Source: Promethearchaeota archaeon
Lineage (GTDB): Archaea; Asgardarchaeota; Thorarchaeia; Thorarchaeales; Thorarchaeaceae
NCBI GenBank assembly: GCA_048939765.1
Contig: JBHLPF010000043.1
Span: forward strand, 1 to 23,918
DNA length: 23,918 bases
Direction: 5' to 3'
Positions 1 to 21,725 of the stretch are shown here, one piece after another. The notes below the pieces were generated by a model. That model saw nothing but the letters and a program-made list of their open reading frames with translations, was not told where the DNA came from and did not search any database. The position numbers and the translations under genes were made by a program. How positions within the stretch are numbered: position 1 is the stretch's first letter; each line of letters begins with the position of its first letter.

Positions 1-3000
1 ACAATTGGATTTAGAACATCGCTTGGAATCCACACTTCTGGGCTTAGCTACACAGATGATTATCTTCCAGGCACATCGTTCTCAATAGTCAATGGCAGCT
101 TGGCTGTCTGGACAGCAAATGTACTAGTGTCCCCTCCTCCTGAGATAGAATCGATTTCGTTTGAGTTGTCCTATCCAGAAGGCGAATGGTATCCGTTCTC
201 TGTCAAGAGCCCCTCAGGATTAGAGAAGTCATTTGCAGCTGACTGGACATGCTTTGACGGGAGGCTGATTGTTGCTTCAACAGCGATTGATGAATATGGT
301 ATGTGGAGAATACAATTCCAAGATAGAAATCATGTCTTTGAAACGCAAATGGGTCCGGCGGGAGGACCTTATTCCTCGTCAGGGGAGTTTTCGATAGGTG
401 AAGATATCGTACTCCGGTCGTGGAGCTCCGGAACCATGAGTTCGGCCATAACTATTGATTTGACAGATCCATCTGGCTCAACATGGTATTCCGGACTCAC
501 AACATTCCAGGGACTGAGATTCACTCTGCCATACTCTCACAGAAAATATCTAACTATCAGTCACCAGAATGTTGCAGAAGATCTTGTCAACTTCCCCGTG
601 CTTGTTGACATGTATGACACCGACCTTCGAACGGATGTTCGTTCAGACGGTCGGGATATTGCCTTTGCGATTGGCGAAGTGACACTTGCACATGAGATTG
701 AGCTATTCGACCAGACATTCAACTCAACGCATGCGCATCTCGCAGCATGGGTAAAGGTACCGTTGCTTTCAGGTTCGAGCGATACTGCAATTAGCATGTA
801 TTACGGCAACCCCTTGGCGCCGATAGTCTATGATTCAGGACCAGTGTGGGATTCTGGGTATCTTGGCGTCTGGCACCTATCAGAGAGTGGAACTGGAGCG
901 CTTGATGAATACCTTGATAGCAGTCAGTATAAGAATCATGGCCAGGGAGGAGAAGGAGCGGCCACTTTTGTGCCAACTCAAGTTTCGGGCAAGATTGGAT
1001 TTGGACAGGACTTCAATAATCTTGATGGAAACTATGACCTTATTGACTGCGGAGATAGTCCGCTTTGGAACATTGATGGGTACCAGCTAACACTTGAAGC
1101 ATGGGTGCAACATGATATCACTCCCAATACACACATCTATGGAATAATGAATCACAAGGGGTGGTATAATGGTTACAGCCTATGGATCAATAACGGAGAA
1201 GGTTCAACTCTAAAGCCCGTCTTCAACGTCCAAGGAGAAACCCATCAGCTAGTAGGAGCTAATGATGTGACGGGCGGATCTTGGCACCATGTTGTAGCTA
1301 CTTATGATGGCACCTTGATGAGAATCTACGTTGACGGAGTACAGGATCCAAATGTCCTCCAAAAGAGTGACACAATACTGGCCTCCACAGCTGAGCAAGG
1401 CTTTTGGATTGGTCATGGCGACCAGCCAAAGGATGTTGGCTGGAGCGGGGAATATGAGGGTCAAATTGATGAAGTTCGCATCTCAGATGTTACGCGTTCG
1501 GCCGGTTGGATTCAGACCCAATTTCAGAATCAAGACAATCCAAGCAGCTTCTTCTCTGTCAGCGCAGAGCAGTCCCCAGGTTATTCAGAATCTGAGAGTA
1601 TCGCACTTGATTCTTCTGCACCTGCAGGAGTCTGGCATGCTACTGCCAGACTTACGGATAGCGGATTCAATGTCGGTCATAGAGTGGGGATATTCAGTCG
1701 AAGCTTTGTTGTGAAACGAGGCGCTTCGCTGAAACTCACAGCACCGGGTGATGCAATATCCGATGGAATCTCAGCTAAGCTCATAGGTGAGGGTCTGCAT
1801 GTTGAGTACGAGCTGTCCGATTTACTTACCTCTCTTCCAATAAGCGGTGCTACAATGACAATGAACTGGACAGTTGGCGGTGTTCCTGCTCAAGTTCAGC
1901 TCAATGACTATGGAGATGGGCGGTACGGAAAAGTCTTGAATACCACAGATTTGGGTACGGCCCAACGTTGGCGTTTTGAACTTACCTCATCACATCAATA
2001 TTATAGTGATGCAAGCAGCGTCTTCTTCCTAGACTTATCGCATCAGACCTATCTCACATATGAACCCCCATCAGATACTGCATACGGTGACGACTTCACC
2101 ATAAGAGTAACACTCAGAGACTTGTTCAACAGTCAACCCTTGGCCAATGCAGGATTCGCCAGCAACGGGACCATTGTAGGCATGCCTGTAGACTACGGAA
2201 ATGGAACATATCTCTTGACCATTGACAGCTCGTCACTCTCAACTGGTGCTCACACATTTAGATTCACAGCGACTCCGGCGGATTCATACCGCCTGAGTAG
2301 CTCAATTGATGTACAATTTGTGTATAGAGAAGTTGCCACGGATGCGTATCCACAAAGCTCTGATCCAGTTGAAATCCCTTGGAGACAACAAGCCACCGTC
2401 ACGATACATTGGTATGATTTGGACCACTCAGGAATAGGCATAGAAGGAGGTACTGCTAGTATCGTTCCCTCGGTCACTATTCAAACAGCGGATGTTGGAG
2501 GAGGAGATTATACTCTAACAATAGACACGAGTTCGTATCTAGTTGGCACCTACGCATTTGATGTAACTCTATCAAAGGCTAACTACCAAGATGCGACTAC
2601 AATTGTTACCGTGATAGTGAAAGTACATAGTACATCATTAAGTGCAGATTATAGTCCATCAACGCCAGTGGGAACGAACACCTATTTCGACATCTCATTC
2701 CTTGATATCGATGGAGGTTCAGTTGGAATAGGCGTTGGCAATCTGAGTCAGGTGACACTAGACTGGGGTAGTGGACCTCAAGCATTCTTCCCCTATGGAT
2801 TTTCGTTGGATACAAGTGCTTGGCCTATAGGGGTATATACAATCAACATTACAGTCTATGCATCTATAGCACCTCGATACTATTCGGACGCTACAATTTC
2901 CGTTGACCTCGAAATCAGAAAGCTTGAGGCCTATGTGAGCTGGGAACATCTTGAGCCATTCCCGAATGGTGATGACTTCATTATGTTTGTTCATCTGAAT

Positions 3001-6000
3001 ATTAGCGAACCAGGAACATTGATTGATGGAGACCCCATCAATGGATTGACTCAAGCATACTTCACTGCGAGGAATGAAACTGGCTGGCAATATACATTGG
3101 AGAGCTTTGCATTCCTCGGTGAGGGTCGATACCAGATTGCCATAGATCAAAGCAACTTCCTGGAAGGAGAATACACAATTGTAGTTTACGTCGACTTTCT
3201 GCCTGCAGAGAACTATCTCGATTCACAGACACCAGTAATAACATTTACCTATAGGCCCATCTTGACCTATTTGTCGTCTGATGATTATCCAACAGTGACA
3301 ACTACCTATGACACAAATGTGACTATCACACTCAATTATGTGGACATAGACAACAATGTCAATATCACTACAGGCTGGATTACAGCAGAAGGTGCGTCTA
3401 TCACCTGGCTACATCTAGGTGACGGAATCTACGAAGTGCTCGTAATTGTGCAGGATTGGGATCTGGGAACACATGAGGTCAATATTACTGCAGACGCCCC
3501 AAGCTATCAGGCCAAGACCCTGACGTTCGAGGTTTTGGTGCAAATCGCCTACGCCTATGCTCGGTCTTCTGAATCATCAATTGATCTTCCATTAGGAGAC
3601 ACAGCTATCTTTTACGTGGACTACTGGGACATTATTCACGATGAAGCTATACTTGGTGCAACAATCGACCATAACTGGACTCACGCTTTGACAGTAATCT
3701 GGACAGGTTCACAATACCGAGTCGAGCTCCCTAGCCTTGATACAGATTCCTTAGGCAGCTTTTTCATTCTGTTCAATGTTTCCAAGGGTTCGAACTATCA
3801 GTTTGGATACTTCAATGTGAGCCTGACTCTCAGGACCCATTACACAGATTTCAGACTTGGCAGCGCTGTCGAACCAACAACTTACATTGGCATGGTTAAT
3901 ATTTCGGTATACTACGGCGACTTAGACAACGATATTGGTATCACCTCTCAATATGCAAATGCTTCAGTCTACAGTGATACCCGTTGGATTGACGCATCCC
4001 TTGAGAACGACACATCTCAAGGTGATGGATACTATATCATAAGATTCCCAGCATCGATTCTCGGTCCGGAGGGAATCTTTAACTTCACCGTCTATTTCAA
4101 TTGGACGGGACCAAGCCAGCAGTTCTATAACGGCATAATAATAGCATCTGTCAATATTATAGGTGAAGAGTCGAATTTAGGTCTCGAGGATTCACCCGGA
4201 CCCACTCCATACCTGGAGAATATGACGTACACATATTTCTACAGCGAGCTTTACAGCGGACAAGGAATATCCAATGCATCAACTGGCAATGTATTCATTT
4301 TCGTTGATTTCATTGGCGAATCTATTGATCCATCATTAGTAACGATTCTTGAGGGCCTACCAGGACACTATAGTATAGAGTTCAATTCCACAATTTTCGG
4401 AAGACCCGGCGTATTCTCCATGACTGTACAGGTGAATTGGTCTGTTTCAGCCGAACCCGCTTATGGCAATCAAACTGATACCATAACCGTACGGGTTATC
4501 CCAAGAAACACCGTGGTATCTGTGACCCCGCCAGATAACACTGCTTATGGTGTCAATGCCACATTCTCATTCTCGTATGACGATGTATCTGGCGCTATTC
4601 CGTCCGCTATTCCCAGGGACTCACAGATGATAGTCAATATGAACTTGCCAGACTACACAATCAGCTATAATTCAACAACTAGACAGTTCCATGTATCCTT
4701 CAACACCAGTGTTCTAGGTGCATCTCTTGGAAGCAAGCAGTTCACCATTAGCATTACTTGGATTGGCTCACCATTCTATGCAAATATCACAGCAAGAACC
4801 ATCTTTCTCACTGTATCCAACAGAGAAACGTCGTTGGATTTTGCTACACCCAGTCCCACTCCATATGGAGAAATGGCTACATTTACTGTGACCTATCTGG
4901 ATGTCGCAGGAGCAGCTCCTAGTCCAATTGATGATGGAACAATTGCATTGTACAACGACTCTCAGCCAGTTCCAGTTTCATTCTACAGCTATGTTCCTGT
5001 TGGAAACGGTCAATACACCATTGAGTTGAATACAAGCTATTTCTCTAGACCAGACTCCTATAATCTAGAGATTCAAATCACCACAACTCACTTCTACTAT
5101 CTTGATGCTACGGGTTCGCGGATACTCAATGTTCGATATAGAATCACCACGCTTACAGCTGAATCCGTCGGGATCGTATCGTACAATTCATCAATCCCAA
5201 TAGTGTTACACTATAGTGATCTATTCTCTCTTACACCAATCGGGAATAGCTCCCTACTGACAGGCATAGAGATTCTCAATGGAAGCTCTTGGCACTTTAC
5301 AGCAGATTGGCGTGGTGTTTCTCAAGATTACTTGGTCACTGTGCAGACATTCAATCAGATCCTTTACGTTGATACAGACTATGTGCTTTGGATTCGATTC
5401 ACCTACGCAGATGCTGCACCATTCTACCTTCCCGCAGAAACTTTCGTGTCCTTCAGACTCAGGGGACGCACAACGTATCTAGATGTCACTGAATCACCAT
5501 TGCCTACTCCGTATCTAGACTTTGTCAATTTCACAGTTACATATCGTGACTTGGAGTCATCTGCTCGGATCGGAGGTGCAAACATTGTACTTTCTATTGA
5601 CACAGTTGATCTTATCGAGGGTACAGAATACATTCTGCAGACAAGTGGTGATGGCATCTATTATCTGTCGATCAATACTACTGCGATAGGGACTCCGGGC
5701 ACCACAAAAAGCCTTGTAGTAACTGCTGAGTGGACCTCGGGAGCCCCCTACTACACGGACTGCACAATTGCTTTGACTGTATCAGTATTAGTACGACCCG
5801 CAAGTGTCAGAATTATCAGCTCACCATCGCAGGTCAGGTTCCTCGATAACATCACATTCGTATTCAGCTATAGTGACGACAATACGGATGATTTCATCTC
5901 GCTAACAAAGAGCATGGTGTCAATCTACAGTGCAGGAAGCCTCCTTCAAGGCAGCGACTTCATGATGGCTTTCGTTGGCAATGGATATAGAATTGGAATC

Positions 6001-9000
6001 AATTCAGCTATCTTGAGTCCTAATCTAGTAACCAATTGGAATGTCACAGTCTTTGTCGATTGGTCTTTCACGGTTGCCCCGTACTATTCAGATGATGCAG
6101 CATCGGTGGGTGTCACTGTCATCAATAGGGTTGGATCCATAAGCCTTGGCAATGCTCCAGCAACTCCAATTGGCGACAATATGACACTTGCTTTCTCCTA
6201 CGAAGATCAGGACAATGGATTGGGAATTGGTGATGCCATAGTCGTGTTTGATTGTCTAAGTCCGAGTGGGCTTGCCGAGGATGTTGACTTCTGGGTAGTT
6301 AGGGGTGTTGGCATTGAGTTTGGTGAGTACACGATTTTGGTTGATACAGACAAGCTTACCGGAGTTGGCCTGTACACATTCTCCTTGCGCCTTCAGTGGA
6401 ATCCGTCCGTCGCACCCTATTATCGGAATGCCTCAGAGGTATTTCTTGTTGGTTCAGTCAGGCTGATTCAATCTCAATTGGAGTATGAAGAACCAACGCC
6501 AACAACAGTACCTATCAACGACAATGTGAGTGTGGTTCTCACACTAGCTGATGCAGATCACTTGTTGCCAATAGCCGGAGCTGAAAACAACATCAGTGTC
6601 ACATACAAATCAGATGGTTCTACTCCGTCGATATGGAGTATAACTGTGGTCGCTCCAGGGATGTACGGACTGGTGGTGAACTGCACTGATGCAGGCTCCA
6701 GCGGTACAAATGCACTTGTGATACAAATTGACCTGAGCAACTACCAATTTGCTGAGGTTCAGGTACCAATACAGATTCGGGCCAGGCAGGGTGTGTTGAC
6801 GAAAGTAGAATCACCTGAAGCTTACTTTGGTGAGCAGACTTATGCAATTGTTGAACTAGTAGATATTGATGCATCATCTGCTCCAATACAGGATGCTATA
6901 TTGAATCGAATATGGCCTGAAACTTCAAGCTATATCTACATTGGAAATGGAATGTACAACATTACTCTTGACACAACTTCTTTGGATGCAGACCTCTACA
7001 CCCTTATAGTGAGCGCTCAAAAGGCTGACTACTTCATTCCGGAAATTTCCATCTCAATAAGGGTGCTTAGCATTCCAACAGGAATTATTCTGCCTCAGAC
7101 AGTTCCGGATGTCTATTGGGGAGAAAGCGTTTCAATTTGGGCTATCTTCAATGACACTCGGAGCGGCACTCTCATTCCTGGAGCCACTGTCAGCTATCAG
7201 TTCGGCATTTTGAGTGGAAGTCTTGCAGAGGGAGCACCGGGGAATTACTCGTTTACGATTGATACCGGAAACCTTCCTCTCGCTACAACATATCTCGTGT
7301 CGATAAGTGCTAGTCTTGATAATTATGTCACAGTTACAGGGCAAATCACCGTGAATATCTTGCGATTGAATCTTGAACTTACAATAGTGGATGGTCTAAA
7401 TAGCCAGGAGATCTACAAAGGTGAACCAGCAAACATCACCGTATTTGTTCGTGATGCATACAATGATGTGCCTCTAACGGGGGCTTCGGTATCAGCAAAG
7501 TGGGTCTTTGACTTGGTTGGCGTGTCGTTAACGCCAGTTCCAGGAATGGATGGATATTATACAGGACTCATCACAACAGCGGCGGCGAGCCCTACGACGT
7601 ATTCAATTGTTGTGAGTGTCGAAAAGACCAACTATCTCACTACTACTTCTTCTGCGGAGGTTGAAATCAAGCAGATTCTGACCAGGGTGGATTTAGACCC
7701 ATTGACTGAAACTTATGGTAGTCGGATTTTCAATTGGACCGATACTATTCGAATTGGGGTGTTTGTGCTTGTACCTTCTTTGAATGATACTGGATTATCA
7801 AACTGCACAGTGACTTGGTTGCTTTCAGGAACATTCCTGACAGGCGAATTCCTGAACGGTTCATCAATTGGAGGGCCAGGCTACTTCTACTATGACTTCA
7901 ATACCTGGGAGTTTAATGCGACTACGTACACTCTAAGGTTTACTGCATACCCATGGATTGGTGCATTTGACACATCCAGCAATATGACAACCATAACAAT
8001 CAGACCTGTTCAAACAACAGTTGAATCCTCATTCGTGCCACCCAAGGTGTGGGGATGGGCCGGCTGGGTGAACCTAACATATTGGAACCTTATGGAAGAT
8101 AGAGGAGTTGTTGCAGCTGAGGTCGGAATTGACTGGGAAGGAATCGAGCAACGGTCAAGGTACGCTATCGACGGCATATATCAGGTATGGGTCAACACGT
8201 CCCTAGTAGGTCCCGGCGTATACACAATGGTTGTCAGCTTCCTGAAACAAAATTATGAAGGTGGGACCGGAGTCATCACACTGACAGTAGTCGAAGTTCC
8301 GACAGAAATTGCAGTTTACGCCCCATCACAGTATAAAATCGAGGGCAATGCCTTGAATCTCCAGATTCCTTATGGTGACAGCCTCTCAATTACGCTGTTC
8401 TATAATGACACGTGGTATAACCGAGGCATATCCAATGCTTCAGAGTTGACCTCCGTTATTATAGGCCCATCGATTCCAGACAAAGACAACCTACTGATTT
8501 CGGAACTCTCTTCTGGTAACTACAGTTTATTCATTGATTCTTCTCGTTGGATAGTCAGCGATACCCGGTATCGAATTGTTGTGAATCTTGGACTGGAAAA
8601 TCGAAGCAGATCTACGCTCAATCTCTATGTCACCATAATCAACATCCCAACGGCACTCACTGCCAATCAGGAAACCATCCCGATGAGCTATAGTCAGACA
8701 ACTACTGTCCTAGTGTTCTATTATGACATCTGGGAAGGCCACAACAATCGAGGACTTCCAGATGGTGACGTGAACGCGACTAGCTTGAACGAAGAATTCG
8801 TAGTCGCACGAGTGATGCCACAAGAGGGCATGGATCCCGGTTGGTATGAAATCACGTTGTTATCACAACGCAGTCAGGGGTCTGTAGTGGTCCTCATTGA
8901 GCTGTCAAAAGAGAATTGTGAGTCGGCGATAGTATCTGTTGCAGTTTCAGTAGAACCATCTGATTTTGACCTTCTCCTTGAACGTTCATTGCTCTATGGC

Positions 9001-9753
9001 CTTCCAATTGGAGTCATTTGCATTATTGGTGCCATCCTCTGGTCGAGACTGTTCAGTCTGCCAAAACGACTGAGAGAACTTCGTGGAATGGTGAGAACTA
9101 TCAGCCGTGGTCGTATTCCGAAGGTGCCTGATGGCGTCCAGAACAGAAGGGAGATGCTTACTGGTCTCTTCAACGAAATCGTAGCACCAATTGGGATTGT
9201 CAGGTCAGCTGATAGTATGCCCGAATATTCCCTGACAGCTGAAGTTCCAGAGTTGGAGGAACTGCTAATTCAGCTGTCTATCCTGACAGAATTAAGGCCC
9301 GAAGAGCTAGATGAATTTCGAGCAGATGTATCAAAAATGAAGCCCAGCGAGCAGGCGGCTTTCATTAAGGAAGTAATCGATCAAGAACTAATCAAACACT
9401 CTAAGAAGGAAAAGAAGAGCATTGAGAAGATCCGGGAAGAAACCTTAGCACAGGCAAGAGCACAGATCGCTGGAGAAGAGATTGCTCCTCCATCAGAACC
9501 AGTAGTTATTGAAGAGGAGCCACTTCCTGAAGAATCTGAACAGAAACGACCTGACCTCACAAAGGCAAAGGACGAATTGCCACCTGATTTAGTCAGCGTG
9601 GAAGAGATTCGAGCTATACGTAGGAAACTAGTCGAGGCAGGAATTGGAGGCGGCGAACTGGAAACAATTATGGAGCAAGTTCAAGAGCTTCCAAAGGAGC
9701 TGGTTGAAGACCTCATCAATAGCATTCTCAAGAAGGGAGGTGACAAGCCATGA
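1..9753 (+). CDS. Giant single-pass membrane-anchored surface glycoprotein A (5'-partial): DUF2341 + LamG cassette, 23 Ig-like repeats, C-terminal TM helix, ~236-aa cytoplasmic tail
   Basis: Frame +1 has no stop from base 1 (TIGFRTSLGIHTSGLSYTDDYLPGTSFSIVNGSLAVWTANVLVSPPP). This aligns with internal ORF2 sequence (LDSNMMPGTSFSTANGTDVTWTANVLISPPP), so TTG 100 is not the real start and the gene begins upstream of the window. The ectodomain is beta-rich and T/S/Y/D-rich with many N-x-S/T sequons. A hydrophobic helix at ~8989-9042 is followed by basic residues. Confidence 0.92.
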   Translation, partial: TIGFRTSLGIHTSGLSYTDDYLPGTSFSIVNGSLAVWTANVLVSPPPEIESISFELSYPEGEWYPFSVKSPSGLEKSFAADWTCFDGRLIVASTAIDEYGMWRIQFQDRNHVFETQMGPAGGPYSSSGEFSIGEDIVLRSWSSGTMSSAITIDLTDPSGSTWYSGLTTFQGLRFTLPYSHRKYLTISHQNVAEDLVNFPVLVDMYDTDLRTDVRSDGRDIAFAIGEVTLAHEIELFDQTFNSTHAHLAAWVKVPLLSGSSDTAISMYYGNPLAPIVYDSGPVWDSGYLGVWHLSESGTGALDEYLDSSQYKNHGQGGEGAATFVPTQVSGKIGFGQDFNNLDGNYDLIDCGDSPLWNIDGYQLTLEAWVQHDITPNTHIYGIMNHKGWYNGYSLWINNGEGSTLKPVFNVQGETHQLVGANDVTGGSWHHVVATYDGTLMRIYVDGVQDPNVLQKSDTILASTAEQGFWIGHGDQPKDVGWSGEYEGQIDEVRISDVTRSAGWIQTQFQNQDNPSSFFSVSAEQSPGYSESESIALDSSAPAGVWHATARLTDSGFNVGHRVGIFSRSFVVKRGASLKLTAPGDAISDGISAKLIGEGLHVEYELSDLLTSLPISGATMTMNWTVGGVPAQVQLNDYGDGRYGKVLNTTDLGTAQRWRFELTSSHQYYSDASSVFFLDLSHQTYLTYEPPSDTAYGDDFTIRVTLRDLFNSQPLANAGFASNGTIVGMPVDYGNGTYLLTIDSSSLSTGAHTFRFTATPADSYRLSSSIDVQFVYREVATDAYPQSSDPVEIPWRQQATVTIHWYDLDHSGIGIEGGTASIVPSVTIQTADVGGGDYTLTIDTSSYLVGTYAFDVTLSKANYQDATTIVTVIVKVHSTSLSADYSPSTPVGTNTYFDISFLDIDGGSVGIGVGNLSQVTLDWGSGPQAFFPYGFSLDTSAWPIGVYTINITVYASIAPRYYSDATISVDLEIRKLEAYVSWEHLEPFPNGDDFIMFVHLNISEPGTLIDGDPINGLTQAYFTARNETGWQYTLESFAFLGEGRYQIAIDQSNFLEGEYTIVVYVDFLPAENYLDSQTPVITFTYRPILTYLSSDDYPTVTTTYDTNVTITLNYVDIDNNVNITTGWITAEGASITWLHLGDGIYEVLVIVQDWDLGTHEVNITADAPSYQAKTLTFEVLVQIAYAYARSSESSIDLPLGDTAIFYVDYWDIIHDEAILGATIDHNWTHALTVIWTGSQYRVELPSLDTDSLGSFFILFNVSKGSNYQFGYFNVSLTLRTHYTDFRLGSAVEPTTYIGMVNISVYYGDLDNDIGITSQYANASVYSDTRWIDASLENDTSQGDGYYIIRFPASILGPEGIFNFTVYFNWTGPSQQFYNGIIIASVNIIGEESNLGLEDSPGPTPYLENMTYTYFYSELYSGQGISNASTGNVFIFVDFIGESIDPSLVTILEGLPGHYSIEFNSTIFGRPGVFSMTVQVNWSVSAEPAYGNQTDTITVRVIPRNTVVSVTPPDNTAYGVNATFSFSYDDVSGAIPSAIPRDSQMIVNMNLPDYTISYNSTTRQFHVSFNTSVLGASLGSKQFTISITWIGSPFYANITARTIFLTVSNRETSLDFATPSPTPYGEMATFTVTYLDVAGAAPSPIDDGTIALYNDSQPVPVSFYSYVPVGNGQYTIELNTSYFSRPDSYNLEIQITTTHFYYLDATGSRILNVRYRITTLTAESVGIVSYNSSIPIVLHYSDLFSLTPIGNSSLLTGIEILNGSSWHFTADWRGVSQDYLVTVQTFNQILYVDTDYVLWIRFTYADAAPFYLPAETFVSFRLRGRTTYLDVTESPLPTPYLDFVNFTVTYRDLESSARIGGANIVLSIDTVDLIEGTEYILQTSGDGIYYLSINTTAIGTPGTTKSLVVTAEWTSGAPYYTDCTIALTVSVLVRPASVRIISSPSQVRFLDNITFVFSYSDDNTDDFISLTKSMVSIYSAGSLLQGSDFMMAFVGNGYRIGINSAILSPNLVTNWNVTVFVDWSFTVAPYYSDDAASVGVTVINRVGSISLGNAPATPIGDNMTLAFSYEDQDNGLGIGDAIVVFDCLSPSGLAEDVDFWVVRGVGIEFGEYTILVDTDKLTGVGLYTFSLRLQWNPSVAPYYRNASEVFLVGSVRLIQSQLEYEEPTPTTVPINDNVSVVLTLADADHLLPIAGAENNISVTYKSDGSTPSIWSITVVAPGMYGLVVNCTDAGSSGTNALVIQIDLSNYQFAEVQVPIQIRARQGVLTKVESPEAYFGEQTYAIVELVDIDASSAPIQDAILNRIWPETSSYIYIGNGMYNITLDTTSLDADLYTLIVSAQKADYFIPEISISIRVLSIPTGIILPQTVPDVYWGESVSIWAIFNDTRSGTLIPGATVSYQFGILSGSLAEGAPGNYSFTIDTGNLPLATTYLVSISASLDNYVTVTGQITVNILRLNLELTIVDGLNSQEIYKGEPANITVFVRDAYNDVPLTGASVSAKWVFDLVGVSLTPVPGMDGYYTGLITTAAASPTTYSIVVSVEKTNYLTTTSSAEVEIKQILTRVDLDPLTETYGSRIFNWTDTIRIGVFVLVPSLNDTGLSNCTVTWLLSGTFLTGEFLNGSSIGGPGYFYYDFNTWEFNATTYTLRFTAYPWIGAFDTSSNMTTITIRPVQTTVESSFVPPKVWGWAGWVNLTYWNLMEDRGVVAAEVGIDWEGIEQRSRYAIDGIYQVWVNTSLVGPGVYTMVVSFLKQNYEGGTGVITLTVVEVPTEIAVYAPSQYKIEGNALNLQIPYGDSLSITLFYNDTWYNRGISNASELTSVIIGPSIPDKDNLLISELSSGNYSLFIDSSRWIVSDTRYRIVVNLGLENRSRSTLNLYVTIINIPTALTANQETIPMSYSQTTTVLVFYYDIWEGHNNRGLPDGDVNATSLNEEFVVARVMPQEGMDPGWYEITLLSQRSQGSVVVLIELSKENCESAIVSVAVSVEPSDFDLLLERSLLYGLPIGVICIIGAILWSRLFSLPKRLRELRGMVRTISRGRIPKVPDGVQNRREMLTGLFNEIVAPIGIVRSADSMPEYSLTAEVPELEELLIQLSILTELRPEELDEFRADVSKMKPSEQAAFIKEVIDQELIKHSKKEKKSIEKIREETLAQARAQIAGEEIAPPSEPVVIEEEPLPEESEQKRPDLTKAKDELPPDLVSVEEIRAIRRKLVEAGIGGGELETIMEQVQELPKELVEDLINSILKKGGDKP
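532..1572 (+). other. DUF2341 + LamG (concanavalin A-like jelly-roll) cassette in ORF1
   Basis: DUF2341-type motifs RKYLTI..V..DL.NFPVLV...DG.DI.F...L.HEIE.F...AWVKVP.LS...MYYGN. These are followed by GVWHLSE/DSS..NHG and LamG motifs TLEAWV, WHHVVATYDG..MRIYVDG, GQIDEVRIS...RS.GWI. Confidence 0.85.
1717..8958 (+). repeat. Stalk of 23 tandem divergent Ig-like beta-sandwich repeats (~95-115 aa each) in ORF1
   Basis: Recurring protein pattern [R/I]xTxL...P..(Y/W/I)G(D/E)....(Y/F)xD....(G/P)IxGA.....(D)xGxGxY.....(N/D)T..L..GxY.......Y. I counted 23 units by hand. The repeat is visible at protein level only; the Ig fold is inferred. Confidence 0.75.
8989..9042 (+). other. C-terminal transmembrane helix of ORF1
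   Basis: LLYGLPIGVICIIGAILW followed by the basic segment SRLFSLPKRLRELRGMVRTISRGRIPK (positive-inside rule). Confidence 0.85.
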
Positions 9754-9755
9754 TG
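9736..9755 (+). promoter_or_regulatory. Shine-Dalgarno GGAGGTGA plus ATGA(TG) start/stop overlap coupling ORF1 to ORF2
   Basis: GGAGGTGA at 9736-9743 lies 6 nt before ATG 9750. That ATG overlaps the ORF1 stop TGA (9751-9753). A second in-frame ATG is at 9753. Confidence 0.85.
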
Positions 9756-9896
9756 CCCTCTTCGTCCAGAATCCCCTCTCTGAGAATGAGAAACAAGACA
9801 CGAAATCTGCTGTTTCAATTGGTGGTGGTAGGAATACTAATCCTGGTCGTTTCTCCAGTTCCTAGTTTTATCTCTAGCAGTAATATGGCAGAGGCT
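9750..9896 (+). other. Sec-type signal peptide / N-terminal signal anchor of ORF2
   Basis: Basic n-region, h-region LLFQLVVVGILILVV, and a possible A-x-A cleavage site AEA|YP at 9888-9896. The cleavage position is uncertain. Confidence 0.7.
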
Positions 9897-12800
9897 TATC
9901 CCGCATCACAGGTCCAATGGACAGACAATTGGGCCCAATCAGAAGGCCAGTCTTATGCAGGAAGTGGTGCACCACAGGATATTACCCTAAACGGAGCAAT
10001 CACCAATGATTCACAGGAGCTAGAGCTGATTGACCCGTCTGCGCCAACGGCGGTAACTATCAGTGCACCTCAAGGCTGGTCAGGCACGTCATTGAGCGGA
10101 ACCATGGATCACATTTCTACTCGATTCACTCCGATCAAGAATGGACTGCTTGATACATACCATACTGAACGCACTATAGTATCTGGTTGGCCTTGGAGTT
10201 CACAAGAATACAATGTGCCAGATAATTGGGCCATAATCGATGAGGGCGAAGACCCCGTGCATCCCTATTACGGCCATCTCTACTTCCATAGTTATTCAGC
10301 AAACGGTATGCAGGGGTCCATGGGATGGAGATTCACTGCGAACTATGGCACAACTAACTCTCTAGACACAAGCGATAGGATTTTCCTTTGCCAGCAGATA
10401 GGTATGCCTTGGAGAGAGCTCTACTCAGCGGAAGTATCTCTTCGCTACTACGTGCGAAGTCAATCAACCATGAATGACTACTTCTATCTTTTTGTCGGCC
10501 TTGGTGACTTTGAATCAAGGGTTCATGTATTCGAGTCAGGTGACACAACTGATGAGTGGCTCCAATATGACGTCGAAGTTCCAGCCTCCGCCTTTGATGA
10601 ATATCCGATTCCGGGGGCAATAGAATTGAGAATAGGCATCGGAACAGAATACTCAGGATTGCCAGCAGCCACCATTGACCATCAAGTTCTCATTGATGAG
10701 GTGGATTTGGTTCTTGAAGCACGACCACTTCCAGAACAAATAGGTCTTAGTGCTAACCAGACACTTATCACTAGTTCAATAGCAGGCAGTGTTTCACCAT
10801 ATGTGCCTGATGGGGCATCAAGAGATTGCTTCAGTCGATCTGACACTGGAATTAGCACTTCCAGTGCACTGAGAGTGGGCGTATATAGCTCCAGTGGATC
10901 ATCATGGGATGATATAATTAAGTATCAGATAGGAATTCAATTCCCCTTGGAAATACCGCAAGGTGCGATAATCACATATGCTGCATTGGAAGTAGAGGCA
11001 TTAGGCTACCTTGGCGGGGGTGACAATTCGCTACGTGTTCTTGTAGCTGAAGAAGATAATGTTTCACCCTTTACAAACGGCCTACCTAATCTCGAGGATA
11101 GATATACTTGGAGTAATACAAGTGTCGCATGGATACAAGATACATGGGAGAACTATTTCAGGTATAGAACACCAGATATGTCTTCGCTTGTACAGAGTGT
11201 TATATCTCGTTCTGGCTGGGACAGTGGAAACTACATCGGCGTCATGATTGACTACATGAACTCAGATCAATACCGTGATTGGAACTCTATTAGGGGCACA
11301 TATAGCTACGGCGGCCTAGACTTGGCTACATTCTATGTGGAATTTCTAGTACCTCAAGAAGAGGACACTATTTCCATCCTCGAATACAAGAAGGATTTGA
11401 CAATCGACCACACGAAGGTGAGCTCAGACCTAGAGGACTTCCCTGTTCTGGTTGACATCTATGACAGCGATCTCAAGACTGATGCTCGACAAGATGGGAA
11501 AGACATCAAGTTCACAGTTGGCTCAGAAATACTAGACCACGAAATAGAACTCTTTGACTCCGATTATAATTCAACTCATGCGCATCTTGTAGCTTGGGTG
11601 AATGTTCCTTTGCTTTCTGCTTCAACAGACACCACGGTCACAATGTCGTATGGAGCTCCAGATGCAAGCATCCCAGAAAATCCCCATCGGATTTGGGACG
11701 ACTATGAGAGCGTGTGGCATCTCTCAGAACAATCCGGCAATGGTTCGTTCATTGAAGACTCGAGCCAGAATTACCACAATGGTATGCCTGTGCAAACAAC
11801 CTTTATGCAAAATGCAAGAATAGGTGATGCCCGGTATTTCCAAGATGCAGTTGGCAATTATATCCCATTCATAGATGGCGACGATATATTCGACGGATGG
11901 GGAGACTTCCAGTTTTCATTTTGGGTCTACTTTGATTATTCAAGCGATGCTGAATGGACAGATGTAGAACCCCTAATCTTTGAGAAAGGCACAAGTATTA
12001 CTCTCGTAAGGACTTTCAGACAGTCTACTGGCTGGCCACCTGACATTGCTTCGTTCCAGCCCGATATTCATTTTAATAGTGGACACAATAGCTGGGTGAA
12101 TATCGGTGTGAAACGTCAGACTTGGAACTACATTGTGTACAAGTACGATAGCACAGGGGACGGAGTATTACGAGGATATAGCTATGCAGATGGTTCACTG
12201 CTCGATTCATCTTCAGATTCAGGCATGGGAGTGGGCGACCGATTGAGAGATGACCTGAATATTTTCATGCTTGGCATATATGGAGGAGGCCAAGTTCACC
12301 TTGGTGGGATAGACGAGTTTCGGACAATGATGGGTTACAAGTCAGTGGACTGGATCCAGACCGAATATGCAAACCAGTATGACCCATCCAGCTTTCTCAA
12401 TGTCGGCACGCAACAGAGTGTGCAGTTTGGACAGAACGCAACGTTGCTCTTCACCACAGATGCCCCATCGGTTGTAAGTATTCTTCCAAGGATGACACTT
12501 GATATCACCGATCAAGAGACCACACTTGATTCAAATATGATGCCAGGAACATCATTCTCCACTGCAAACGGAACAGATGTGACGTGGACTGCGAATGTAT
12601 TGATTAGTCCTCCACCAGGTGCTACTGACATCAGCCTGACCGTGGAGAAACTGTCAACATGGACTCTCCACAGTGTAACCGATTCATTCGATGAAATCAG
12701 GACATCTGAAGTGACCGGCACAGCAACGCAAGTCGTGGTTCCGTCATCCGCGATTGATGTTTATGGAGTCTGGAGCTTCGCATTCACATCTCCAAACGAA

Positions 12801-15800
12801 GCCAGCAATCTTGAATGTGCTGCTGGAGGCGGCTCATATGATATGACGACAGTGGTGCAACCAGGTCAATCACTAGACTTCAGAGGAACAGCTTCAGTAA
12901 TTCCTGGTTCCGCGATGAAACTTACACTTGTTGATCCTAATGACCAGATCTCCTATTCGTCATTTGATTTTTCGCAAGATGGGAGTGGGCAGTTTGAGTG
13001 GACAGGTATTGCCGTGGACAGTACTTGGCCACGTGGAACATGGGTTGCGTATGTAGATTTCAATGACACCGCAGGAGCATTCCCGCTTTATGTTGGCAGA
13101 TATAGCAGAGAGTTTATTGTGAAACATACTTCATCTTTAGAACTTCAGGCCCCTGGTGACGCGATTGGAGACAAATTATCAGTAAGAACAGCAGGCGACT
13201 TATTGCTGGTCGAAGTTCATCTTACGGACACGGACACATCTGAAAACGTGTCAGGCTCCACAGTGATAATGAATTGGACCATTTCAGGTGCACCGACACA
13301 GGTGCAGCTAGAGGACTATGGAGATGGCTCTTATGGCAAAGCTCTGAATACATCTGATCTTGGCCTGCCTGGGATGTGGAGAATCAATATCCAATCGAAT
13401 CATCCTTATCTTGCAGACTCCTCTACTTTCTTTGACCTTGAGCTGTCGCATCCCACATACATATCATATGAAACACCAGACACTACTGCCTATAGTGATG
13501 ATTTTGCTGTCAAGGTGACTCTTTATGATGCGATAAACAGCAATGCATATCCTTCGGCCACAATCACCTCGAATGGTACTCTCGTTGGTGTTCCTGTTGA
13601 TTATGGAAACGGAACTTATCTGGTCCAGATTGACTCAGCTGGTCTTGAACTGGGCACATACGGTTTCCAGATTAATGCCGTACCTAGTCAGAGTTTCGTG
13701 CTTGGGAGTAGCATAGATGTAGTCTTTGTATACAGAAGGATTAGCACAGAGCTTGCTCAGCTTGGTGCCAGTCCAATAAGCATCCCATGGGGTCAGACAG
13801 TCAATGCGACTCTGAAATGGCAGGACATGGACCACGGGAAAACTGGCGTATTAGGAGGGATATTGACTGGTGATGCAACCTTCCAGTACACTGACCTCTT
13901 GGATGGGACTTACTCGATTGAGATTGATGTGAGTGGGAATGCAGTTGGCCTCTACCTGTTCAACTTCTCAATCAGCAAGTCCTACTATACGATGGATCAA
14001 ATCACAGTCGCAGTGAGTGTGATTCCCCATAGGACGACACTGGTAGTAACCTACAATAGCTCAGTACCCATCGGTACGAACACATACTTTAGCTTGGCAT
14101 ATCATGATATGGACACAGGCGGTGCTGAAATTCCAGGCAATTTCTCATCAGTTCAGGTTCAGTGGAACGGTGGATTAGCTCCGTTTGGTTCAAAGGCGTT
14201 CTGGCTTCAAACTACGCAGTGGGGACTTGGTTCTCACACATTGAATCTGACGCTATTCGCAACATCTTCACCAAGGTTCTATTACGATGGACACACTGCA
14301 GTGATCATCGAGATAGGAAAGGTGAAAACAGGTTTCAATTGGGCTCCTATTGATAGCTTCCCAGTTGGGGATGATTTCGCAATACCTCTCTTCTTGACCG
14401 TGGATGAATATGTATCAATATACGATGGCACCTCAATTGATGGTCTCGATGTGAGCTACTTTGACGCTCAAGATAAAGACGGCACACCGTACACGATTAA
14501 GAGCCTCTCAGCCTTGGGCAATGGAGAATATCTCCTCACGATTGACCAAGCATTTTTCTCAGTTGGTACCTATACAATTCGGATAATCATCACTTTTGGA
14601 GCAGCGGAGAATTACACCAGCACTCAGACGCCCATCATCAATTTTGCATACAGTCAAGCACGTAGCGAACTAACTTCTCCAGACTATCCGACAATGACGA
14701 TATCATATAGTACGGACGCCTCAATCACACTGGAGTTCATAGATATAGATCGAGGTCAGGGAATCGATACTGCATCTGTTACAGTTGTCGGTGCAACAGA
14801 ATTGAGTGAGAACTTGATAAGCAGTGGTAGATACAGAGTTGTTATAGACACTTCAAGCTGGAGCATTGGAGGAGATAATGTGACTCTGATAGTGTCTGCT
14901 CCAAACTATCAGAGCAAGAACATGACTATATACATACAAGTGCGGCAAATCAGAACCTATGCAATAGCAACTATTGGCTTCTTAGATATACCAGTGGGAG
15001 ATTCGAAGATTTTCTATGTAGATTACATGGATTTGGACCACGACACGACCATAGGACTTGCGGAGGGTGCGATTGGTTCATGTAATTGGACTTCCAGCCA
15101 TTACGATGTAGCTTGGACTGGAACTCGTTGGAAGGTCACCATCACCACTTATGACACTGATAGTCTTGACTCCTACTTCCTAATGTTTGATTTCTCAGCT
15201 GGTGCTGAGTATGAAGTAGCCTATTTCAATATGTCAGTAGTTATTCGAACCATTGATACTGAATTACGACTAATCACGCCGGCAGAAACTACAACCGCAA
15301 CAGGTCAAGTACAGATATCCGTTTACTACGGAGACCGTGACCACGCCCTAGGCATTGTATCATCCGATGTTTCCTGTACAGTAAGAAACAGCACGGACAC
15401 ACTCACTATCTCATGGGTCAATGGTTCAGCTGACGGTTATTATGATATCACTATCGATGCATCGCAGTTCGGAAAACTTGGAAATCAACAACTTAATATC
15501 ATTTTCAATTGGACAGGGAGCATACAGAAGTACCAAGATAAGTTCCTTCTCACCTCAGCCGAGGTAGTTGGCGAGGATTCCGAGATCGTGCTAATTGATG
15601 CTACTCCCGCGACTCCATGTCTGGGCTATATGGATTATACATTCCTGTACATGGATTCCTCAGGTTTCGGCATAACCAACAACACATCTGATGTGTTTAT
15701 CCGTGTCGAATTCAGCGGGCTGGCTATTGATTACTCTCAGATTGACATCCTGGAAGTTGACAACATTGCTAGTCCTGGCTATTACTCTATTGGCTTCAAT

Positions 15801-18800
15801 AACACGATCCTTGGCAGCACCGGCCTATTCTCAATGAGGGTATTCATCAATTGGTCCCAAGGTGCTTGGCCATATTATACAAACCGGACGGATGTGATTT
15901 CTGTAAGGGTCCTCCCCAGAGATACACTACTCTCTATAGTACCACCAACCAGCGTGGCTTTTGGTGAGAACGCGACATTCACATTCACGTACGAAGACAT
16001 TACTGGAGGAACCTCCAGTACTATTGCCAATGACGCTGCAATGGCCATTTCATTGAGCCTTGCTGAGTTCACATTGGACTATGATTCTTTGGGTGGAATC
16101 TTCACAGTTTCGTTCAATACAAGTCAATTCGGGGCTCCCCTAGGTGAAAGGACATTCACCTTGAGCGTGTCTTGGTCAGGAATTCCATTCTATGCCAACA
16201 AGACTGGCAAGTTGATATCGTTGACAGTATCAGACAGGCAGACTGTGCTGACATATCCAACACCTCCAGTAACATCCTATAACGACAACGTTACATTCAC
16301 AATTATCCTTACAGATGTTGCTGGGTCCGTTTCGAGGGGTGTGGAAGGCGCAACTATAAGCCTCTATGATGGCGCTGCCGAAATACCACAAACATATGTG
16401 AAAATCATTGAGCAAGGTCAGGGACAATATCTCATTGAACTGAACACTTCGTATTACGCCATGCCTGACAACTATATCCTAGACATCATCGCGACCCCTG
16501 CAGCATTCTACTATCTAGCTAAGAGTGGTTCGCGGACACTCACAATTGATTCTCGTGTAACTATTCTGATTGCGGAACCTCCTGGTGATACAGCTCATAA
16601 TTCATCTCTGAGAATTGTAGTTCAGTATTTGGATCTCAATACTCTAAACTCGATTGCAAACCAGAGTAGCCTCTATACACATATTCAGATACTCAATGGG
16701 TCCGGGTGGATATTCACCTGCACATGGCGGCCATCAGCGGAGAACTATTTGCTCATTGTTGAAACCTACAATCAAGCGCTGGACATTGGAACACAATATC
16801 AGCTCTGGTTAAACTTCAGCACTGAAGAACAAGCACCATTCTACAGATCGTCCACCCTCCTAGTTCCATTCCGGCTCCGTGAGAGGGATACCACTTTGGA
16901 TATCATCGCAACCGCCCTTCCAACCAGCTATTCTGACCACGCCAATTTCACTATAGAATACAAGGACATCCTATCGTTATCAGGCATAACAGGCGGAACA
17001 ATAATACTCCATCATGGTTTCAATCTCCTAAGCCAAGGCGTGGAATATCAGATCTCCATTATCGGAGTTGGTCAATACAGGATATCTGTTGATACTTCGT
17101 TCCTAGGTGCACCTGGCACCAAGACTATCACAGTGACGGCTGATTGGTCTGCAGGCGCACCCTATTACAATGACGCTTCGCGGAATGTGACCTTCATTGT
17201 CACCGAGCGGCAGACTAGTATTGAGATAACCGTTCCTCCCTCAGAAACCCAATTCCTGAATAATGTGACATTCGACTTCATATTCACAGATGCAGCCACC
17301 AGAGCGGCAATCGGAATTGTTGCCGATGATGTCAGGATATTCAGTGAAGGCATTCAGCTAGGCGCACAAGATTACAGTATCTCCATTGCCGGCAGTGGGC
17401 TACGTATCAATCTGAACTCAACCATCATCAGTGCCGCGCTTGTCAGCAATTGGAATATCACGGTAGTAGTCGTCTGGACAGGAGGAACACCCTATTATCA
17501 GGATGATCAATCCACTGTCTTTGTCACTACAACTTCAAGATCAGGCACTGTGGAATTAGATCAAGTCTTAGACACACCGCTTGGTGACAATGTCGTGCTG
17601 GGTTTGACATTCTCGGATCAGACCAAAGGCATTGGCATCACAGGTGCTTCCATTGTCTTCTCGTGTGTAGAGGTGCCAGGACTTGTCGAGGGTGTTGATT
17701 ACTGGATAACAGCCGGAGTAGGGCCAGATGCTGGCAGATATACTGTTGATGTGAGTAGTACCGCGCTTGGGAGTCTTGGCCTCTATAACTTCATACTTGA
17801 GGTAAGATGGAATCCAGTAGTTTCTCCATACTACGCAAACATCACCAATCTACTGATGAAGGGAGTTGTGAGAGCAATCCAAGTTTCGCTATCAAGTGAA
17901 TTGCCTACGCCTTCGGTTGCAGCGTTCTATCAGAATATCTCATTCATTGTTACATTCACAGATATTGACCACTCCCTGGGTATACCCGGTGCAGAAGGGG
18001 CAATCTCTTTGAAATACGATTCAACAGGTCTGGAACCATCATGTTGGTCTGTGCATTCAATTGCTGCGGGAGCCTATAACATCTCGCTCAATCTCACCGA
18101 TAGCCTCACCACAGGACTTCAATATATCACAGTCGGCATCACCCTCTTCCCCTACCAGTCAGTCACAACTCAAGCAGTCGTTGGGGTCCGCAATAGAGTA
18201 GGAGGACTTACTGCAGATGTTCCTGCAGCCAATTATGCTGGAGAACCCATCTATGTCACGGTATCTCTTGTCGATGATGATGCAGGAGGGGCGCCTCGCA
18301 GCGGTGCGTGGCTTGACCTCACCTGGGGTGACTTTGCATCATTCACGGATTTGGGCGACGGGAGCTATAATGTGACTCTCTTCACAACCGGCCTAGGCTT
18401 TGGCATACAGACTCTGAAAATCGATGTAATTCTTACACATTATACTGTTAGCACTCTTTCGGTAGAACTAGAGCTACTTGCCGTTACTTCGGAATTAATT
18501 GTGACTTGGAGCGGACCGAGACCCAATTCTCCATTAGAGATTTACTGGGGAGAACCTCTGACAATCTATGCAGCTTTCAATGACACGTTAAGAAATCAGC
18601 TAGTCACGTCTGCTACTATCGTCTACTCATGGACAGGTGGATCAGATGCGTTTGGAATAACAGGCACGCCAGGCAATTACACTGCCATTGTGGATACAAG
18701 TCCAGGTAGTGCTCATCAAACGATTACTATAAGACTAGAAGGGCAAGCACCTAATTATCTAAACACCTCTGCTCAGCTGTCATTTCAGCTACTGCCAAGA

Positions 18801-21725: not shown

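Follow-up and report, generated by a model that had tools for sequence, protein, structure and literature searches.

PySLP, the 292-kDa colossal surface-layer (S-layer) protein of Pyrobaculum arsenaticum, contains 19 immunoglobulin (Ig)-like domains, extends to 37 nm and assembles into a hexagonal lattice (bioRxiv 10.64898/2026.08.21.746120). Among Asgard archaea, the aloposons of Heimdallarchaeum carry the tandem giant genes Otus and Ephialtes, insert at tRNA genes and have four upstream genes including one for a MinD/ParA ATPase; the same study mentioned tandem giant pairs in Thorarchaeota, which were noted without an analysis of architecture, topology, tails or neighbouring genes (Wu et al. 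2022, PMC8813620). In the survey of Amaral and Devos, the huge proteins of archaea mostly carried Laminin_G_3 domains, and their function is not understood. The cultured Asgard archaea examined so far have no ordered S-layer, and they bear complex, unidentified surface proteins which are thought to mediate the cell-cell contacts of eukaryogenesis models. Here we describe two tandem giant genes, A and B, in a 23,918-nucleotide stretch of Thorarchaeota DNA (the window, which is one entire contig). They lie on the plus strand as two long open reading frames (ORFs), A followed by B, which occupy positions 1-21725, and the tandem Thorarchaeota pairs mentioned by Wu et al. very likely represent the same family. 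Each protein has a head with DUF2341/LamG-type modules, a stalk of Ig-fold repeats, one membrane helix and a large conserved tail. We tentatively favour the explanation that the pair forms a surface-to-cytoplasm adhesion module, in which coupled, N-glycosylated type-I paralogues would dock cytoplasmic adaptors with their tails.

The window belongs to a Thorarchaeota metagenome-assembled genome (MAG) of 3.37 Mb in 108 contigs (88.5% complete), and homologues of the giants carry the names Candidatus Thorarchaeota or Promethearchaeota. This supplies the taxonomic assignment that was absent from an earlier, sequence-only reading of the same DNA. A and B are collinear paralogues with 39% identity across 2745 residues. 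The sequence-only reading had described two paralogous giant genes joined by a Shine-Dalgarno sequence and an ATGA overlap, one of 3991 aa and the other truncated at its 5' end with more than 3250 aa; the ORF coordinates, the identity between the proteins and the GGAGGTGA/ATGA junction all bear this out, with the correction that A is short of about half its length. The same-genus orthologue of A has 6541 aa, of which the A of the window corresponds to residues 3293-6541 (83.6% identity). According to this orthologue, the part missing from the window comprises the signal peptide, the N-terminal domain and eight further DUF2341/LamG cassettes. With these eight counted, A has nine cassettes and one tail unit, and B has one cassette and four tail units. 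The coordinates of all features are collected in Table 1.

A single strong hydrophobic helix was found near the C-terminus of each protein, and B also has an N-terminal segment of the signal type. The ectodomains contain 1.2-1.3% lysine and approximately two N-x-S/T sites per 100 aa, the number of sites being ca. 2.3-fold that in shuffled sequences (61 vs 27.3 ± 4.7 for A and 72 vs 30.9 ± 4.6 for B). The tails contain 8-9% lysine, 15-16% glutamate and no N-x-S/T site, and the first 42 residues past the helix have net charges of +6 and +8. Since charge, lysine content and glycosylation sites all agree, the tails are placed inside the cell, and these concordant signals argue for the single membrane pass and type-I topology that the sequence-only reading had proposed. 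N-glycosylation at a site of the N-x-S/T type has been demonstrated in one Asgard archaeon (PMC11284389).

When 30 tails were aligned, they showed a common plan: the juxtamembrane stretch is basic, a helical core is strongly conserved, and a 45-aa unit is present in one to four copies. The tails of A and B have net charges of -12 and -23, and an AlphaFold2 model of the tail was all-helical with three helices per unit (pLDDT 78.6, pTM 0.30). Tail identity among orthologues is 46-90%, in keeping with the large conserved tails described earlier; their lengths, which had been put at 236-411 aa, were measured at 232 and 409 aa. Searches with the tail in Pfam (to E 10), in NCBIfam and, by Foldseek, in the PDB gave nothing significant, and no known adaptor-binding domain was matched. 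A wide structural search returned generic three-helix bundles only (protein A, KIX), with Z values up to 6.5, which is under the noise level for helical models. When a tail profile was compared with 1.84 billion representative proteins, only 160 matches were obtained at E <= 0.001, and in every full-length match the tail was the C-terminal end of a long protein. A complex prediction that combined the helix and tail core of A with those of B, using separate alignments and without control runs, gave a score of 0.00, which speaks neither for nor against a contact between the two.

Weak relatives were seen beyond the tail family itself. Five surface proteins with Ig repeats, from MAGs labelled Odin- or Hermodarchaeota (P0169, P0170, P0183, P0187 and P0171), resemble the giants in their membrane helix and basic juxtamembrane stretch (IPW..RKMRKM...GKG) and have a different conserved tail, and the plan of tailed giants may thus be wider in Asgard archaea than the present tail family. 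P0180 (481 aa) consists of seven ~60-aa helical units resembling the three-helix unit of the tail and a C-terminal membrane helix (profile E 3e-5, five matched stretches); this protein is possibly a tail-anchored relative of the repeat found in the tails.

A hidden Markov model (HMM) iterated from a single repeat detected 22 units of ~100 aa in the stalk of each protein. One repeat-sized gap lies at the same ordinal position in A and B, so that each stalk is counted as 23 repeats, the number that the sequence-only reading had given. The repeats share a mean identity of 23%, and each is closer to its counterpart in the paralogue, which indicates that the array is old and position-specific. One repeat, folded with the other 43 as an alignment, was modelled as a seven-strand sandwich (pLDDT 96.4), and its best matches in the PDB were Ig domains of titin, twitchin, Dscam, SYG-2 and NCAM (Foldseek; E ~1e-4, TM 0.5-0.65, 8-18% identity). 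In Pfam, A and B matched the DUF2341 and Laminin_G families only, with no match to an Ig (I-set, V-set), cadherin or integrin family. Since the Ig match is one of fold and no Pfam Ig family was hit, the term 'Ig stalk' is valid for the fold and not for the family. The likeness to Ig-superfamily cell adhesion molecules, cadherins and integrins of eukaryotes is accordingly limited to fold and architecture: a repeated beta-sandwich ectodomain, a single pass, a tail long enough for adaptors and neighbouring genes of the small-GTPase type, with A and B lying outside these families by Pfam.

Giant adhesins of bacteria such as SiiE, LapA and the Marinomonas ice-binding adhesin mostly leave the cell by type I secretion and stay attached to the outer membrane; a cytoplasmic domain is lacking, and the number of repeats differs among strains. 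A and B resemble them in the plan of head, extender and anchor, in the sugar-binding-type modules at the tip and in the long rod of tandem beta-sandwich domains. They differ from them in a Sec-type signal, a C-terminal membrane helix, old position-specific repeats that have diverged to the low mean identity given above, a fixed repeat number and a large tail.

The head of A within the window contains a Laminin_G_3 domain that was matched at E 1.2e-18 with 68.2 bits against a Pfam cut-off of 27.6, which places it among the concanavalin-like lectin/LamG domains. The sole Pfam match of B was a sub-threshold DUF2341, B itself being under the LamG cut-off, and orthologues of B carry PF13385 and PF10102. 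The head domains claimed earlier for both proteins therefore stand for A (DUF2341 and Laminin_G_3) and for the orthologues of B, whereas B itself shows a sub-threshold DUF2341 only. From the LamG family name alone, carbohydrate binding by the heads would be expected. The N-terminal domain of B (aa 45-570) had no match in sequence searches of Pfam, NCBIfam and the PDB, and a protein atlas offered weak CBM96-type leads at 0.80 and nothing else.

The distribution of the tail was examined in 400 genomes of the phylum with the B tail as query (E <= 1e-5). Within the family of the window, 80 of 85 genomes had the tail, as did the sole genome of a sister family; there was no match at this threshold in ~314 other Asgard genomes. 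The genome of the window itself encodes eight tailed giants, plus fragments, as four tandem pairs, which together take up no less than 94 kb and 2.8% of the assembly. The order with A upstream of B recurs in another genus, where at least five genomes have it. At 13 of 15 junctions from two genera, the genes overlap by ATGA or GTGA, and GGAGGTG is found 14-15 nt upstream, encoded in a conserved Gly-Gly of the C-terminus of A; the translational coupling and the syntenic pairing which had been read from the single locus thus recur across genera. In a maximum-likelihood tree of the helix and tail core, A and B formed separate clades (support 99/99 and 100/99, respectively), each with both genera, indicating that the A/B duplication is older than the split of the genera. 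In two other tandem pairs of the same genome, the members are mutually nearest in the tail-core tree, and tandem pairs thus arose or were homogenised more than once.

This recurrence of tandem duplication or conversion is what would be expected if A and B were two unassociated fibres, each acting alone or as a homo-oligomer on its own range of ligands, with the tandem overlap reflecting an old duplication and co-expression. The strongly unequal content of the heads (nine cassettes vs one) and a B-like gene without an upstream A in genus g6 point the same way, and we regard this explanation as possible, though somewhat doubtful. It sits less easily with an A-B order, a 4-nt overlap and an embedded ribosome-binding site that are kept across genera, with stalks matched repeat for repeat at 23 each, and with the joint gain or loss of A and B described below. 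We infer from these features that A and B may pair with each other.

A 103-kb contig from the same genus, whose B tail is 90% identical to that of the window, spans the entire region. Its gene order is A' (>5000 aa), B' (3991 aa), a 455-aa Ras/Roc-type gene on the opposite strand, a 207-aa leucine-rich repeat (LRR) gene, A (6541 aa), B (3996 aa) and the aminotransferase gene that is also present in the window. In the genome of the window, the beginning of contig C30 carries the 24 initial codons of the LRR gene together with the GTPase gene (89% identical), and B' is next to them; this indicates the same layout split by assembly gaps. The LRR gene is divergent from and back to back with the GTPase gene at 20/20 loci with enough flanking sequence (three genera), and the N-terminus of A comes next after the LRR gene at all seven loci with a still longer flank.

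The LRR protein has no signal peptide and no hydrophobic segment and, given the lack of a signal peptide, is probably cytoplasmic. The G domain of the Ras/Roc-like protein has kept NKxD and ETS(S/T). The P-loop has the sequence GExxVGV(K/N)S, in which the register or the lysine is lost, and DxxG is replaced by WTF(E/P)x; more distant paralogues of the GTPase retain GxxVGK. With its degenerate P-loop and the loss of DxxG, the companion protein looks like a pseudoGTPase. It also has a conserved, unassigned N-terminal module of ~120 aa. ROCO proteins (LRRK2, Chlorobium Roco; LRR-Roc-COR) likewise have an LRR module and a Ras/Roc-type G domain encoded together, but in the present locus the two are on separate divergent genes, no COR match was obtained and the phosphate- and Mg-binding motifs are lost.

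In genus g12, the cassette of four genes has a hydrolase gene on one side and a methylase gene on the other, with margins of 18 and 55 bp. Two g12 genomes (99% and 90% complete) lack all four genes of the cassette and have only 20 bp between the two flanking genes. In genus g1, the cassette is flanked by other neighbours than in g12. B-type tails and the GTPase orthologue are distributed over nearly identical sets of genomes. In two genomic contexts, the genes for the pseudoGTPase, the LRR protein, A and B thus behave like a single unit, which is suggestive of a functional link, and the conserved LRR protein and the pseudoGTPase are concrete candidates for intracellular partners of the tails.

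The clean presence/absence polymorphism of this 30-kb cassette in one genus and its different context in g1 could also indicate the cargo of a mobile element related to the Heimdallarchaeum aloposons. Like the giants of aloposons and of Thorarchaeota, A and B are tandem, mutually homologous genes for Asgard proteins of 3000-6000 aa. Unlike in aloposons, the genes upstream of A and B are those for the LRR protein and the pseudoGTPase, followed by housekeeping genes. The window and 14 flanking loci from seven genomes were free of tRNA genes, and the housekeeping flanks contained neither a MinD/ParA gene set nor an integrase or transposase. No repeats were found at the cassette boundaries of 18-55 bp, no relative of the tail occurred on viral contigs, and the trees of A and B track the genera. 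We therefore consider a mobile-element origin very improbable.

Table 1. Features of the A/B locus, its companion genes and the cassette sites. Locations without a prefix are positions in the window.
Feature	Location	Strand	Remarks
ORF A, 3' half (3250 aa) of a giant putative type-I surface protein	1..9753	+	5' open; full length ~6540 aa from orthologue
Last head cassette of A (aa 176-560)	526..1680	+	DUF2341 (aa 217-278) and Laminin_G_3 (aa 343-505)
A stalk	1744..8973	+	23 Ig-like repeats, ~100 aa each
A transmembrane helix (aa 2996-3018)	8986..9054	+
A tail	9055..9750	+	232 aa; basic juxtamembrane stretch, conserved helical core, one 45-aa three-helix unit
Coupling site	9736..9753	+	GGAGGTGA (9736-9743) within final codons of A, then ATGA stop/start overlap (9750-9753)
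ORF B, complete giant putative type-I surface protein (3991 aa)	9750..21725	+
B signal-peptide-like N-terminus	9750..9896	+	basic stretch, hydrophobic stretch, then AEA
B N-terminal domain	9897..11384	+	no family match; 42% identical to N-terminus of full-length A
B DUF2341/LamG-type cassette (aa 546-909)	11385..12476	+	the only one in B
B stalk	13152..20411	+	23 Ig-like repeats
B transmembrane helix (aa 3563-3583)	20436..20498	+
B tail	20499..21722	+	~408 aa; basic juxtamembrane stretch, conserved helical core, four 45-aa three-helix units (~21015-21719)
Class I/II aminotransferase, Kbl/BioF type	21846..23042		3' of B; outside the finding
455-aa Ras/Roc-like gene	G000:C30:218-1579; L042:12588-13952	+; +
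207-aa LRR gene	G000:C30:5-76; L042:11826-12446	-; -	partial on C30
Empty cassette sites	G349:C344:49489-51461; G353:C98:17436-19402		compare filled site
Filled cassette site	G365:C13:12337-44221		30 kb

Based on these results, the working of the pair is proposed to be as described below. A and B, ancient paralogues produced by translationally coupled genes, would be exported by their signal peptides. Each bears its DUF2341/LamG modules, nine in A and one in B, on a rod of 23 Ig-fold domains, which in extended form would span roughly 90 nm. One helix would anchor each protein in the membrane, and the acidic helical tail behind it consists of the core and one (A) or four (B) three-helix units. 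The heads may engage a conserved external ligand, such as a glycan, a component of a partner cell or a component of the cell's own coat. The tails would be docking platforms that link the external contact to cytoplasmic adaptors, and the LRR protein and Ras-like pseudoGTPase encoded next to the pair would be the leading candidates for these. The architecture of the pair is well established, and its conservation, the signals of coupling and the behaviour of the cassette are direct observations. A receptor-like mechanism with these named candidate partners is plausible, and binding of a ligand by the heads and of adaptors by the tails is what we infer from the arrangement. The observation on which the sequence-only reading was built, a coupled pair of tailed giants, is confirmed, and its interpretation as a trans-membrane adhesion or sensing complex is partly supported: the tails are predicted to be inside the cell and are conserved among homologues, the homologues did not prove to be mostly single and short-tailed, and the family did not turn out to be one already characterised as an ordinary S-layer protein.

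Several observations weigh against the proposed adhesion module. Between genera, residues 251-1000 of B are 70-82% identical, while identity is 50-60% in the stalk and 47-52% in the tail, so that the head is the best conserved region; the most conserved stretch consists of the DUF2341/LamG cassette and the C-terminal portion of the N-domain. The stalk of B spans 2376-2390 aa in 33/33 orthologues irrespective of their divergence, i.e. with <1% variation. With a conserved head and a constant stalk span, the usual marks of adhesins, variation of the tip and of the repeat number, are absent. The link of the LRR protein and the pseudoGTPase to the giants is one of gene neighbourhood, and joint loss of adjacent genes is expected anyway. 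Other tailed pairs in the same genomes are without LRR/GTPase neighbours, and the cassette is missing in about half of the g12 species and is thus dispensable.

The conserved head and the invariant stalk length are roughly as compatible with a structural canopy at the surface as with a receptor. A and B would then build an S-layer- or glycocalyx-like coat of fixed height, with the heads making lattice or lateral contacts and the tails stabilising the anchoring or positioning the coat. The plan of the proteins agrees with that of PySLP, which is likewise an archaeal giant with a signal peptide, mostly Ig-like domains, a stalk, a C-terminal membrane helix and likely glycosylation. The enrichment of glycosylation sites, the share of the assembly that is taken up by tailed giants and the near-universal presence of the family in Thorarchaeaceae are also in line with a coat. 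However, the tail of PySLP is short and basic and ends in Lys, and the tails of its homologues are also short and basic, whereas those of A and B are long, acidic, conserved and predicted to be folded into helices. A and B further differ from PySLP in having 23 stalk domains and LamG cassettes, in being two coupled paralogues and in their LRR/pseudoGTPase neighbours; the likeness is one of plan, and no sequence homology is claimed. Membership of the PySLP-like S-layer proteins would also entail a paracrystalline lattice and a place among the most abundant proteins of the cell. Moreover, the present pair type is absent in near-complete genomes of the same genus, nine head cassettes on A and one on B would be awkward for a single lattice, and the cultured Asgard archaea that have been examined lack an ordered S-layer, although none of them is a Thorarchaeon. 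Taken together, we hold a coat of this kind to be rather unlikely, though a serious rival to the adhesion module.

A more specific form of the adhesion module would make the cassette an Asgard-specific outside-in contact receptor, in which the paired rods bind a partner cell or glycan via LamG and the tail units recruit the LRR protein and a Rab-like pseudoGTPase. Such a receptor seems unlikely; if it existed, it would be a prokaryotic analogue of the coupling of adhesion receptors to small GTPases in the lineage nearest eukaryotes. If the tails dock the LRR protein or the pseudoGTPase, an archaeon would possess a eukaryotic-style link from surface to cytoplasm, and if the pair forms a coat of fixed height instead, it would define an archaeal envelope of a new type. 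It is unusual for a prokaryotic surface protein to have a cytoplasmic tail that is large, conserved and folded, and the family provides, in Thorarchaeia, a concrete molecular candidate for the surface proteins of cell-cell contact. The present analysis adds to the description of such giants the genomes with empty sites, the regional conservation profile, the invariance of the stalk span and a reconstruction of the half of A that the window lacks.

Some neighbours of the cassette and of the other pairs were also recorded. A cluster of ESCRT genes (Vps4 with MIT, Vps25-like, EAP30/Vps22-36-like and a probable ESCRT-III) lies ~3-5 kb upstream of the g12 cassette (L044:6943-10470, G365:C13). As the cluster is absent from this position in genus g1, its association with the cassette was treated as a coincidence of local synteny. 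Pairs of the C57 type have a conserved DUF2334/polysaccharide-deacetylase-like gene in front of them on the same strand (G363:C1:411019-411714, L121:8019-8714; G354:C3, L123:11685-12377). The pair on C106 (C106:25628-41094) has a 377-aa LRR gene 2 kb upstream (G000:C106:22472-23605; L113:4573-5706), with a CoA-ligase-like gene of the opposite strand in between. The aminotransferase gene downstream of B is also found 3' of B in the same-genus genome G376, and not so in genus g12. Finally, small ORFs (104-171 aa), antisense or overlapping, occur within or beside the giant genes, at 2758-3150, 21098-21613 and 21588-22064 (all on the minus strand), and they are probably chance frames.

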